DNA of 64,000 nt, taken from positions 1 through 64,000 of the forward strand of contig JAWOEX010000009.1 in assembly GCA_046482545.1 (NCBI GenBank), in the 5' to 3' direction. Position numbers and translations under genes: made by a program. This stretch comes from Candidatus Thorarchaeota archaeon (GTDB lineage: Archaea; Asgardarchaeota; Thorarchaeia; Thorarchaeales; Thorarchaeaceae). Numbering within the stretch: the first letter of the stretch is position 1; every line of letters begins with the position of its first letter. Positions 9,134 to 60,864 of the stretch are shown piece by piece. The notes below the pieces were generated by a model, which was not told the origin of the DNA, searched no databases, and saw only the letters and a program-made list of their open reading frames with translations.

Positions 9134-9232
9134 TTGGTTCCCATCCTTTGCGGTAAATCGTTTTCACTTTGCTTGTGGTTCAGCCTGCTAAGGCCACATC
9201 CCGTACGGATTTCTCCGCCAACACAAAGGAAT
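9134..9232 (-). promoter_or_regulatory. Structured rpl15e 5' leader (putative eL15 r-leader)
   Basis: UCCUUUGUG/CGCAAAGGA stem enclosing GCGGA-GAAA-UCCGU and GUGG-CCU..AGG-CUGAA-CCAC hairpins. Confidence 0.6.
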
Positions 9233-27910: not shown

Positions 27911-28354
27911 CTATTCGTATTCGATATTGATATCAGACACCAGTTTAACACAGGAGCCCAGCAGGCAGTTGCCAATAGGACAATTGTCTTTGGCCATATT
28001 GAAGAGCTTCTTGATTCTTGTCTCGTTAGCGCCTTTTGATACTGTTACGGTGGTGTCAATACTGATTGATTCGAATGCGCTTTTCTGTGTCTCTTCATCA
28101 GTGACATATTCGCCTGAAATATCGGATGTTATGTCACTGAATTCGATGTGCCCTTTCTCAAGTGCTATCTCGAAAATGAGGTTCACGCATGAGCCCACGG
28201 AGGCCAAAAACAGATGATGGGGACTACTCGCATCCTCGTGTTCGCTCATATCGGGAGGAGGAACTACGTCGATAGTTTTGTTCCCTCCAAGCGTAATATT
28301 GTGCACCTTTTCTTTGTCAGTTCTATGTAGCTTAGCTGTAAATGTGGTTGCCAT
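27911..28354 (-). CDS. OsmC family protein
   Basis: SPHHLFLASVGSC...CPI. Confidence 0.85.
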   Translation of the reverse strand: MATTFTAKLHRTDKEKVHNITLGGNKTIDVVPPPDMSEHEDASSPHHLFLASVGSCVNLIFEIALEKGHIEFSDITSDISGEYVTDEETQKSAFESISIDTTVTVSKGANETRIKKLFNMAKDNCPIGNCLLGSCVKLVSDINIEYE

Positions 28355-28603
28355 TATAACCAACTCTTTGTTTTTCGGGTTCCTATCGGACTGATCACCA
28401 GTATGGTCCGCAATCACAGACAGGAGACTTCCCTTTTCACATGGTTGAGGCATCATGGCTTCAATAAAAAACAATTGATACCTTACAAATTTTCGAATAA
28501 ATCCGGTATCAAAACGTTGTGTAAACCTCCTTGCGCACTTCTCTCTTATCCTACAAAATTGGGTGTGAATTATGATAGGTATGGAACAATTCTGCAGTAG
28601 ACC

Positions 28604-29162
28604 TAGGCAAGTGGGCTAGTGCTGTGCACGACGCACACGGCCGAAAGCTGTGAGGTGGACGCGTTCCACTAAGCAGAAGTCCTCACTCTCCACACAGGAA
28701 CTTCATCAGGTTTCGGAGAGTCCGCGGCTGTTCGCTTTGTCCAATTGGATTTGTCCAGCTTCGGTGACGAAGCCGGGCAGAGCGATAATAACCCCGCCGT
28801 GGTAAAAGCTGTGGGAACACTCGCTGCCTCTGGACGTGATGTGTCCGGGTCAGGGCAGGAGACAGAAGCCGAGGCCGCAAGAAGGACCGTGTCCTGATGA
28901 TGGCGGCCAAAGTCCTTGCTTGGCCGGGGGTAGCGCCCTGGTATAGTGGTAACACTGGGCAAGGGAAGGGTGGAACAGGAGTTTCATACAGTTGCTAAAA
29001 CTGTATGAAACGGGTTATCAAGAGCTGAGGAGTATCTTGATGGGGGTGACGCTGGGCAGGAGAAAGCTGGAACACAGAAGTTTCAAGCAATTCTAGTTCA
29101 CTCTCTCATGAGAGGTGGACTGCAAAGATTCCACTACCGCACAGATTACGGCCGCCTGTTTA
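28604..29162 (+). ncRNA. Large structured ncRNA (about 560 nt), possibly a highly divergent/expanded RNase P-like RNA
   Basis: GC-rich, no credible ORF; paired ends, GNRA tetraloops, canonical k-turn 28873-28908, 13-bp hairpin 28981-29011; G-U pairs indicate + strand. Confidence 0.65.
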
Positions 29163-29185
29163 ATCCGCTCTTCTGTACCAAAAGT

Positions 29186-30493
29186 CTATAGATTCAAATC
29201 GTCAAACATGACGATTTTCATAGCTCTTGGCTTATTCTCTATCTCTGCAGTTGCTGCTGCAACCAAGATTTTGATCCCTTTCACTTTGGCAGTATCAACT
29301 AGGCGTTGTGTTACAACTCCATCTAGGACAATCGCTTTTGCGTCATCCAACGAATCAAGCACATCAGTTAATTCTGCTACCCCGCATTCCTTGATGAGAT
29401 TATCCTTCCTATCAAAGACAGCAGCTTTGAAGCTTTCTTTGAGCTCTTTTGCCTCGTTTACATAGGCTTCATTCACTCTTTTGCGCTTGGGTTTTGGAGG
29501 CGGCTTTTCACGCGGTTTTCTTTCCTCTTTCTTCTTTTGAGACGGCCTTTTTTCTTTCTTGCTTGGCGGTTTCTTCCGCTTTCTTTTCTTCGCTTCTCTC
29601 TTGTCTTCTTTCTCCTTCTCAAGCAAACTCAAGGCTTGTTCAGCAGGTATCTTTCTCTTAAGCGCCCTTGATACTGCCTTCCGATTCAAATCTTCGACTT
29701 CTTTTCCCTTTGGTGCTCTTGCGATATAGTCTATATCCGCAACCTGCATCAGCTCTCGAAGTATCAACTCTCCCCCTCGGTCGCCATCCAAGAATGCAGT
29801 GATTTTCTTCCCTTTTTCCTTTGAGAGTTCTGAAATCGAATCTGGGATGTTAGTTCCTTCTGCTGAAATTGTGTTCGTTACCCCGCTCTTCATAAGATTG
29901 ATAACATCAGCTCGCCCTTCGACGATAATTACCTCATCACTCTCAGGCATACTTGGGCCCGCAGGCAGTTTGTCTTCACCATACTTGGTGATGCCCCTCT
30001 TTTTCGCCCTTGTTACCGCATCAGTTATCTCGTCAGCACCTGGAGCGATTTCTTCTTCCCATCCTTTCAAAATGCTGATGGCTCTGCTGACCACTCTTCT
30101 ACGTTTCGCACCACGGATATCTTCCACCTTCTGCAGCGTAACCTCCGCTGAACATGGTCCAACCCGATCCACGGTTTCCATTGATGCAGCAAGGATAGCT
30201 GTAGCTGTTCGATCCATCGATACGGGGATTACGATTTCTCCCTTGCTTTTTCCCTTTTCTGATTTTATTCCTATCTGAATTCTACCAATACGTCCGCTTC
30301 GTTGAAGTTCTCTGAGATCCAAATCTTCGCCCAGTAATCCTTCTGTTTGACCAAATATTGCCCCAACGACATCTGGCTTGTCAACAACACCATCTATCTC
30401 AATTTTTGCTCTAATAACGTATTTCGCAGTAGAATTATCAAAGTCTCCTGCTCCCATATATGCATCTCCTTTTCTCTTGTATGTATCTGTCAC
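29186..30493 (-). CDS. dnaG: Archaeal DnaG (TOPRIM; exosome-associated)
   Basis: DVVGAIFGQTEGLLG, VEGRADV, FLDGDRGG. Confidence 0.96.
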   Translation of the reverse strand: MTDTYKRKGDAYMGAGDFDNSTAKYVIRAKIEIDGVVDKPDVVGAIFGQTEGLLGEDLDLRELQRSGRIGRIQIGIKSEKGKSKGEIVIPVSMDRTATAILAASMETVDRVGPCSAEVTLQKVEDIRGAKRRRVVSRAISILKGWEEEIAPGADEITDAVTRAKKRGITKYGEDKLPAGPSMPESDEVIIVEGRADVINLMKSGVTNTISAEGTNIPDSISELSKEKGKKITAFLDGDRGGELILRELMQVADIDYIARAPKGKEVEDLNRKAVSRALKRKIPAEQALSLLEKEKEDKREAKKRKRKKPPSKKEKRPSQKKKEERKPREKPPPKPKRKRVNEAYVNEAKELKESFKAAVFDRKDNLIKECGVAELTDVLDSLDDAKAIVLDGVVTQRLVDTAKVKGIKILVAAATAEIENKPRAMKIVMFDDLNL

Positions 30494-30950: not shown

Positions 30951-31238
30951 CTCAGATGAAACAGCCCCCTTTCGAGGGCACACTGAGATTTTCGATGATG
31001 TGATTGCGCATAAAAGGCGGGGACAAGCTGGGCACAACCGTTTGAGATACAATGAGCCGTAACGGACTCTGGTGATATGGGTGAATGCCCAAAGATGAGC
31101 TGCGAGTCACCCCGGCATCATACATCAGCGGCCGGTTGATACATACGATGCCCAACATGAGACATCCCGGCGAAGCCAGAGGTAACCTCTGATGCGAGGA
31201 TGCTGGGCGTTAGTGCATTGGGCTACAGTATCAACCGG
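30951..31238 (+). ncRNA. Structured ncRNA (about 290 nt), family unknown
   Basis: Three stem-loop domains incl. 11-bp CCGGTTGATAC/GTATCAACCGG; promoter-like element upstream, U-tract downstream. Confidence 0.6.
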
Positions 31239-31292
31239 ATTATACCCTGTTTCTCTGATTTTTACCGCTATAAGCAGTTCGTATGTTAGCCT

Positions 31293-35412: not shown

Positions 35413-35508
35413 GAACTCAGAACAATCTTGACATCTTTTAATGATTTAGATGCCCGTGAAAATGTAGTCTCCCCTTTCTCGGTATTGAGAAACTGGTAGA
35501 ATAGAGAA

Positions 35509-35624
35509 TGGCCAGTTTGCGGGCCTGTCACGAGCGCTAGCCCGCACATATCCCGCAACGACCCCGGGCTTAACTTCCGCGTTCGGCCGAGAGCGGGTGG
35601 GCCCCGGGGACTATGACCGGCCTA
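35509..35624 (-). rRNA. rrf: 5S rRNA (stand-alone)
   Basis: GGCCGGU/ACUGGCC terminal helix, CAUAG, CCGAAC..GAAGUUAAGCC conserved motifs, about 116 nt. Confidence 0.9.
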
Positions 35625-49542: not shown

Positions 49543-49869
49543 GAGGAGTTCTTTACTCCCTCCTTCTTCTATTTAGAGCATCTTGTGCAGGTGATTATGC
49601 AGCCTCAACCTAAGTCCAGATAGTACCCTATTTCCCTTTTTGATGATGTCCTATCTTATACCCCGACAATCGCCCGGTAATATCCATACTTGCCTTTCTA
49701 TGTTCTCTTTTCTAGTCTCTTCTTGACTATGACAAGTTCAATTGTGTTATTCCATGTTTCGTCTAGATAACCCGTTTACAGTTGGGTTCACTTCCTCAAC
49801 TGTAAAAAAACAGGTTATAATATCTACATTCATATCTAAAGAGAATCACAGTTGGACAGAGGACTTGTC

Positions 49870-60466: not shown

Positions 60467-60645
60467 AAGTTCTACTCTCTAACCTGTTTTGATTTCAGTT
60501 GAGTTCACTTCCTCTTCTGTTTTGGAGGGAGTTATCTAACTCATATACTTCGACACACGAATTCTAAGACACTCCAATCGCCTGTTTAGGTATCTTTCCA
60601 CTACTCTTATAATGCGAATTGATGGAACCATGCCTTGCAATCACT

Positions 60646-60755
60646 GGGTCGGTGGTCTAGCTATTCCGTTAGAATCAGTCTAACGGAACTAGTGTGGCGA
60701 AGATTCTCGGTTTGGGTCCGAGTGATCAGGCGTTCAAATCGCCTCCGGCCCACCA
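60646..60755 (+). tRNA. tRNA-Pro(TGG) with 32-nt D-loop intron (60663-60694)
   Basis: Central helix CUAG/CUAG, 10-bp intron stem, encoded CCA. Confidence 0.9.
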
Positions 60756-60864
60756 CATACCCCTCACTTTTTGCTACCGAATACTGTCTATTCCATGATT
60801 TAACAACACAATCTTCGACTATTGACGAATACCTTTATCAAACATCAAGGGGCAACCCTAACAA

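Follow-up and report, generated by a model that had tools for sequence, protein, structure and literature searches.

Transposons that carry tnpB beside a divergent Cas1 homologue have been described from Asgard archaea as aCas1-associated TnpB elements (Altae-Tran et al. 2023, PMC10691335), and that paper, citing Makarova et al. 2020, also names the groups Cas1H-Asgard-1 and Cas1H-Asgard-2. It notes that GTTCACTCA and, ahead of it, a variable segment lie downstream of tnpB; its main text leaves the meaning of this arrangement open and suggests that the segment is the guide. The omega-RNA of ISDra2, 231 nt long with a 116-nt core, forms a pseudoknot from its last scaffold bases just before the guide (PMC10097598). 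Autorepression of an effector by a crRNA-like mini-array, CreR, has been shown for Cas12a (Liu et al. 2023, bioRxiv 10.1101/2023.03.10.532045).

The window analysed here is a stretch of 64,000 nucleotides from a Candidatus Thorarchaeota contig. The structured RNA between its OsmC-like gene and dnaG is very likely the omega-RNA, or guide scaffold, of the TnpB of a Thorarchaeota aCas1-TnpB transposon family, present in the window as a gene-less copy that was moved in trans. Sequence evidence carries this reading: a multicopy insertion with an empty site, a tnpB gene whose 3' end the RNA overlaps, a covarying k-turn fold, a pseudoknot, a complementary leader unit and a spacer that copies a promoter. 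With the published elements the family shares its Asgard host, a tnpB gene beside a divergent, Cas1-fold protein, flanking repeats and, downstream of tnpB, the variable segment followed by GTTCACTCA. The main text of the published account calls the RNA region not understood, and its anatomy is supplied here: an RNA delimited (~420 nt) and folded, a reading of the segment as an anti-repeat, a crRNA-like unit in the leader, a TTAAT motif, the 6-bp core TCNNGA and gene-less copies numbering in the dozens. What is new is a variant of the TnpB omega-RNA from a named but uncharacterised transposon family.

The RNA resembles the omega-RNAs of ISDra2 and IS200/IS605. It overlaps the 3' end of tnpB and runs to the right end of the element, its last scaffold bases form a pseudoknot before a variable, flank-derived guide, its crRNA-like and tracr-like halves are joined by a loop, and standalone copies exist. 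Unlike the ISDra2 RNA it is about 420 nt long, against 231 nt, and it contains a k-turn. The elements also differ from IS200/IS605 or IS607 in having no Y1 or serine transposase beside tnpB and a 6-bp word at both junctions, and from IS200/IS605 in their insertion sites, which have no TAM, and in a second half-guide upstream of tnpB.

In the window, the element is flanked by two host genes that lie outside it, the OsmC-like gene (27911-28474, minus strand) and dnaG (29186-30493, minus strand). The scaffold occupies 28595-29018 on the plus strand, about 424 nt. The region has a GC content of 57-58%, against about 43% in its surroundings, and none of 100 shuffled sequences folds as well as it does (z -5.35 for 28590-29180 and z -4.5 for 28595-29018); it is a real folded RNA, as the initial annotation held. 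The copy extends to about 29030 in its 93% identity with C34:83721-84165 of genome G000, and homology to other genomic copies ends sharply at 29018-29024, after GGTTAT. At this point lies TCAAGA (29018-29023, plus strand), a form of the 6-bp word seen at both junctions of intact copies. It is followed by a diverged second 3' module (29024-29122, plus strand), the leftover of an older copy, with a hairpin, a GTGA tetraloop, GGAACACAG and the GTTCACTC motif; this aligns locally over about 100 nt with the family 3' end of locus L013, matches the family profile at E 2.5e-12, and has its best match in another genome. From about 29123 the DNA resembles the empty site of a sister species, and 29123-29185 is host intergenic DNA between the older copy's tail and dnaG.

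Upstream of the scaffold, 28460-28594 (plus strand) appears to be the decayed left end and promoter region of the older copy, with a CTTACA box at 28482-28487 and the TATA-like element at 28567-28576. It aligns weakly to the left end of the C34 copy and to the family profile, and the left-end HMM gives no score for it; its left junction is approximate, at about 28460-28470. The segment is not present in the syntenic osmC-dnaG gap of genomes G077 and G078, and in both sister species this gap measures only about 100 bp. The window copy seems to have a nested, young-in-old origin: a young copy would have inserted into an older one at TCAAGA, after which the two direct-repeat RNA copies would have recombined.

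This composite origin explains why the RNA had been taken to be about 560 nt long. The proposed end-to-end helix (28604-27/29139-62) and the helix 28654-59/29130-35 have as their 3' partners host intergenic DNA resembling the sister-species empty site, while the helices reaching to 29051-29084 use the older copy's leftover 3' end; in the family consensus the 5' strands of all these helices pair locally. As they join unrelated pieces, the old copy's tail and host DNA, all the outer helices to 29051-29162 are artefacts. The individual motifs fared better: ACAGAAG at 28862, the k-turn at 28873-28908, GGGTGGAAC at 28968, the 13-bp hairpin at 28981-29011 and the TATA-like element are all where they had been placed. 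The region does indeed contain no credible ORF, but 28688-28840 (plus strand) still reads as the C-terminal tail of TnpB, with 53% identity to residues 489-539, a relic of the tnpB 3' coding frame.

The RNA is a mobile repeat. The 3-Mb genome has 76 strong matches to it, about 55 of which cover at least 300 model positions, and matches occur in 53 of the 86 genomes of the host family. Most copies have a left end in common, set about 140 nt before the RNA, giving gene-less elements of about 550 bp. The window copy is one of these, a non-autonomous, MITE-like unit of left end, RNA and right end with no genes; it is ordinary, most likely one of dozens of passengers, and has no link to dnaG or RNase P.

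The initial annotation had offered two readings, an expanded RNase P/MRP-like RNA and a new class of large archaeal ncRNA. The first drew on ACAGAA, the k-turn and GGTGGAAC standing in an RNase P-like order, and a few 9-11-nt words are indeed common to the locus RNA and the genome's own RNase P RNA (E 0.08 or higher). The likeness to archaeal RNase P RNA (RF00373) amounts to the k-turn and two short similar words, but the locus RNA has no match to that model, no P4 and an unrelated origin, and the true gene is elsewhere. In the genome-wide search RF00373 scored above its cut-off only for a canonical RNase P RNA on another contig, at C34:21067-21410 (156.5 bits), SRP RNA was also found elsewhere, and neither the RNase P, MRP and SRP covariance models nor any other in Rfam matched the locus up to E 10. 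The family profile found no match in the genome's RNase P RNA beyond words at chance level. A P4 pseudoknot built from CR-I and CR-V is not in the consensus of 44 homologues, where the only pseudoknot found pairs TRACC with GGTYA. A single-copy, syntenic housekeeping gene is also not what we see: about 55 near-full copies are dispersed through the genome, and the locus is empty in relatives, with the RNA at none of the 29 other dnaG loci examined, those of both congeners included. It is thus extremely improbable that this is an RNase P/MRP-like ribozyme or a dnaG-linked housekeeping RNA. SRP RNA was discarded as an identity too, and so was a dnaG-linked RNA module, the insert being missing beside dnaG in the 29 relatives. 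Of the second reading, a large structured archaeal RNA with a true k-turn and no Rfam family holds; a free-standing new class does not, as in complete elements the RNA and the tnpB 3' end share sequence.

The fold was derived from an alignment of 44 homologues with 68% mean identity, which gave 81 predicted pairs. Base pairing is retained in 96% of alignment cells, and double-sided changes occur in 55 of the 81 pairs, compared with 28 for shuffled and 18-23 for slid controls, although the consensus structure comes from the same alignment as these counts and the relatives are not independent. In the window copy all but three of the pairs remain (78 of 81). Its core multi-helix domain (28722-28802, plus strand) is made of helices 28722-28/28796-802, 28732-36/28781-85, 28739-42/28747-50 and 28753-63/28768-78, the last capped by a GUGA tetraloop. 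The 3' domain (28809-28978, plus strand) is closed by the long-range helix 28809-13/28975-78, and in the window copy it has lost two conserved nucleotides (AC) near 28975 and one pair. Covariation supports this closing helix, the k-turn arm, the 28913-20/28958-65 stem and two GNRA-capped hairpins, and so upholds the k-turn stems, the GUGA and GUAA hairpins and the 28913-20/28958-65 stem of the initial annotation. The k-turn arm (28873-28908, plus strand) has the canonical features, an NC stem (28873-78/28903-08), tandem GA/AG pairs, a 3-nt bulge and a C stem (28883-87/28891-95); the GA positions are at least 90% conserved and both stems covary. From its sequence, this k-turn is probably bound by L7Ae.

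The end of the scaffold is marked by the pseudoknot. A TRACC inside the scaffold pairs with its last bases, GGTYA, and the two strands show compensatory changes; in the window they read TAACC (28789-28793, plus strand) and GGTTA (29013-29017), and the helix proposed earlier at 28788-94/29012-18 is therefore present, and 28789-93/29013-17 is this covarying pseudoknot. Just before it stands the terminal hairpin (28981-29011, plus strand), in which an anti-repeat would be joined in cis to a repeat in a single-guide form. GTTCACTCA, at least 90% conserved in the 44 homologues, is deleted in the young window copy and present as GTTCACTC in the old 3' module; the GTTCACTC motif is missing from the terminal-hairpin loop of the window copy, as it is in 35 of 55 genomic copies. 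With the scaffold ending at the pseudoknot, the guide is expected to begin a single base beyond GGTYA, which in the window is position 29019. The register given by the pseudoknot and by the spacers of the leader units predicts a flank-derived guide at 29019-29038 (plus strand). A second candidate pseudoknot, GGAAC/GTTCAC, was dropped: GGAACACAG pairs with CTGTG and GTTCACTC with the leader.

Seven genomic copies of the RNA lie at the 3' end of a gene for TnpB. The protein scores above the cut-off for PF07282, matches NF040570 (guided_TnpB) at E 5e-26 and is placed by Foldseek with Cas12f/TnpB at E 1e-13. D241, G344, E402 and D436 are conserved, with D241, E402 and D436 invariant; a glycine takes the place of the canonical RuvC-II glutamate. 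This rearranged RuvC-II is known from large TnpB clades according to the account of aCas1-TnpB elements (PMC10691335), and a special link to Fanzor was set aside, as the change from E to G is widespread among TnpBs. In the structural model the C-terminal ~80 residues are disordered, and their frame reads through the RNA.

Two complete elements, of 8.2 and 8.3 kb, have the order left end, giant gene, tnpB, RNA, right end. Between their ends these two contain only tnpB, the giant gene and an ORF of ~230 aa that has no Pfam or NCBIfam match; neither has a Y1 or serine transposase or a family B polymerase ORF. The giant gene encodes 1400-2000 aa and is arranged head-to-head with tnpB in four loci of G000 and in many genomes of the host family. 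Pfam, NCBIfam, PDB-sequence and Atlas searches left its product unassigned, and only a fold search identified it. Residues 1-240 have the fold of the Cas1 catalytic domain, with Cas1 proteins for all 12 best matches (Z 13.3, rmsd 3.6, 177 residues aligned), and residues 255-565 the fold of a Cas4/RecB nuclease (Z 7.0). The protein was detected almost exclusively in the host family, in 37 of 59 genomes, with 2 further genomes from one other family among 251 sampled. A Pfam Cas1 search found nothing in G000, and its matches in the family's genomes were ordinary CRISPR loci, with the giant protein undetected. In one of these CRISPR loci a gene-less copy sits between cas4 and the next gene. A gene-less copy inside a cas1-cas4 CRISPR adaptation locus was observed at L108:4820-5400 (G073:C19), where comparison with L109 (G074:C4) gives a clean filled/empty pair.

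From its linkage and fold, the giant Cas1-Cas4 fusion is most likely the transposase that moves the gene-less copies in trans. Casposons, the Cas1-solo transposons, use Cas1 as their integrase, have terminal repeats, duplicate a target word and in some copies lie beside tRNA genes. The Thorarchaeota elements are like them in the Cas1-fold candidate integrase, the terminal repeats, the duplicated target word and some tRNA-adjacent copies. They are unlike them in carrying TnpB, in showing no PolB in the two complete elements, in a 6-bp core that is inherited, and in the giant protein itself, whose Cas1 part is without the N-terminal domain over the range that matched, and to which the Cas4/RecB nuclease and more than 800 further residues are fused.

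Some tnpB loci depart from the usual arrangement. At L136:11399-12304 (G000 C28:236398-237303) an Lrp/AsnC-like HTH start runs in frame into the RuvC half of TnpB, and this fusion has retained its RNA. L131:8477-12173 (G000 C34) has a tnpB with a lost leader target and a mutated leader repeat, and in place of the giant gene a two-gene pair that reads in sequence as a putative AbiEi/AbiEii-type module. L117:2118-6159 (G073:C6) consists of tandem tnpB-RNA units, the second beginning directly after the 3' end of the first RNA.

At the insertion sites, a filled/empty pair from two other genomes has the 6-bp word once where the site is empty and on either side of the insert where it is filled. The core word is TCNNGA, and the two junctions carry identical words in 27 of 52 pairs, where 5.3 would be expected. 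Its two variable bases go with the left-end subfamily (22 of 34 pairs; expectation 5.5), a pattern suggestive of a circular intermediate whose joining depends on homology. The same figures could be taken to mean that the RNA serves chiefly in mobility, as an intermediate or as a bridge-RNA-like recombination guide with which the Cas1-Cas4 fusion chooses core-matching targets: a random staggered cut would not link the core bases to the left end, and the equal cores at the two junctions and the tRNA-Gly genes abutted by 7 of 46 tnpB loci point the same way. We find this improbable. Homology between left end and target beyond the 6 bp is not significant (46 vs 40.4, p 0.13), a circular DNA intermediate with a single core explains the inheritance without any RNA, and the architecture of the RNA is that of a TnpB guide.

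The tnpB loci that abut the 3' end of tRNA-Gly(TCC) have no standard right end (L037, L012, L022, L031, L069, L117 and L124) and are possibly a site-specific subfamily. Five copies (L059, L060, L072, L077 and L126) end beside a common tRNA-like 5' fragment.

Upstream of tnpB, about once per gene, lies a conserved unit ending in GAGTGAAC...GAAAC.GGTYAG; no CRISPR-like arrays of this leader repeat were seen. The unit is complementary to the RNA's variable segment and GTTCACTC, and covaries with the 3' segment of the RNA. Cognate duplexes between leader and anti-repeat reach -23.0 kcal/mol, compared with -20.8 +/- 0.5 for permuted pairs (0 of 20000 permutations as low), although the loci are related and the permutation p-values are overstated. 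The leader GGTYA pairs with the internal strand over 5 bp, each position pairing in 27-28 of 28 leader units, with double-sided changes. These pairings suggest that the 'hypervariable' segment of the published account is an anti-repeat rather than a guide, and that the right end represents the leader repeat in fused form; such a fusion accounts for the 13-bp hairpin at 28981-29011.

It follows a published suggestion (PMC10691335) to see the guide itself in the hypervariable segment upstream of GTTCACTCA, and the segment does differ in length and sequence from locus to locus. But it is only ~7-12 nt long, it covaries with the leader unit and pairs in cis with the right end, and it lies upstream of the pseudoknot that marks the end of the scaffold. 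We regard this reading as very unlikely and retain the anti-repeat.

The leader unit has a spacer of its own. In 42 of 47 loci the 12-15 nt after GGTYAG repeat the TATA region about 95 nt upstream. Identity of spacer and promoter is 12.4/14 against 8.2 when permuted, and 3.4/5 against 1.5/5 outside the TATA core. Directly before the promoter target stands TTAAT or a word much like it, position -4 being T in 42 of 42, and in a genome-wide scan none of four G000 spacers hit anything but its own promoter. As in CreR, there is one repeat-like unit whose spacer partially matches a PAM- or TAM-flanked site in the effector's own promoter; this unit is outside the coordinates of the window RNA. Unlike CreR, the effector is a transposon TnpB, there is no CRISPR array, the large RNA would be needed as scaffold, and repression is a prediction. 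We found no description of the leader unit or of its promoter-copying spacer in the papers searched.

The RNA might also be the TnpB omega-RNA with no second, trans-acting guide beside it, if the leader/3' complementarity and the repeated promoter word belong to the DNA: inverted repeats inside the element, and operator or TATA sites that were duplicated and are bound by a protein. The TATA box in both repeated words does force some identity (cross-locus mean 8/14), and the leader end resembles the right end and could be a relic terminus. DNA repeats, however, would not require the leader GGTYA to covary with an internal segment of the RNA some 1.6 kb away. The identity begins exactly after GGTYAG in one word and after the invariant TTAAT-type word in the other, runs for 12-15 nt and differs between loci, and the leader/3' duplex is broken by unequal loops. 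This explanation is unlikely.

The reading with a second guide proposes that one large RNA serves two guides. In cis, the fused repeat would end the scaffold and a flank-derived guide would follow, as in the ISDra2 omega-RNA. With the leader unit, the large RNA would act as a tracr-like scaffold and TnpB would be led to the TATA region of its own promoter, where it may bind without cutting and repress, as CreR does for Cas12a. Sequence and the analogy with CreR together suggest that the tracr/crRNA split is used for autorepression. We lean slightly towards the full scheme, drawn from sequence, in which a Cas1-Cas4 fusion integrase is accompanied by a TnpB with one k-turn scaffold for a flank-derived and a promoter-repressing, crRNA-like guide, and gene-less copies would compete for TnpB and feed copy number into the loop.

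For the window's flank-derived guide, the genome scan found no target flanked by TTAAT or TTCAT, a TAM that was itself inferred from the leader targets, and flank-derived guides as a group had no licensed long-seed targets beyond chance-level matches. Insertion sites have no TTAAT: the T three bases before the core occurs in 0 of 52 (p 3e-8), which leaves TnpB's usual role, cleavage of the empty donor site, unsupported. The window copy would be a cis form with no licensed target, and most likely a passenger or a decoy for TnpB.

Now that the RNA has defined boundaries, a fold and a scaffold end, together with a likely TAM (TTAAT/TTCAT) and a guide register, the nuclease can be tested directly and reprogrammed. 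If the leader unit works as predicted, this would be RNA-guided autorepression in a transposon TnpB. It would also be a natural, array-free omega-RNA split into tracrRNA and crRNA, the proposed origin of dual-RNA Cas12 systems, and the split would sit beside Cas1-Cas4 domains and bear on the origins of type V CRISPR. The anatomy of the family RNA and its predicted self-targeting guide are testable and of specialist interest.

The window holds other traces of the family. On the minus strand, 49769-49817 is a mini-element of ~50 bp, two inverted right-end halves ending in GGGTTA and then TCTAGA, with similar mini-elements on C28 (231785-231831) and C34 (23819-23858), and 2091-2163 is a decayed right-end remnant (profile E 0.003) ending in GGTTA and then TCTGGT. 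At 60479-60549 (minus strand) lies an orphan leader unit that is not followed by a tnpB and for whose spacer the search gave no target beside TTAAT. Some 90 nt upstream of this unit is a tRNA-like sequence (~60640-60760, minus strand) that seems to contain an intron and was not called by ARAGORN. Another stretch rich in GC and poor in ORFs, at 30990-31260 upstream of dnaG, matches neither Rfam at gathering score nor the element profile. Rfam matches above cut-off in the window include a 5S rRNA (35507-35624, minus strand) and an eL15-Euryarchaeota ribosomal protein leader (9172-9218, minus strand).
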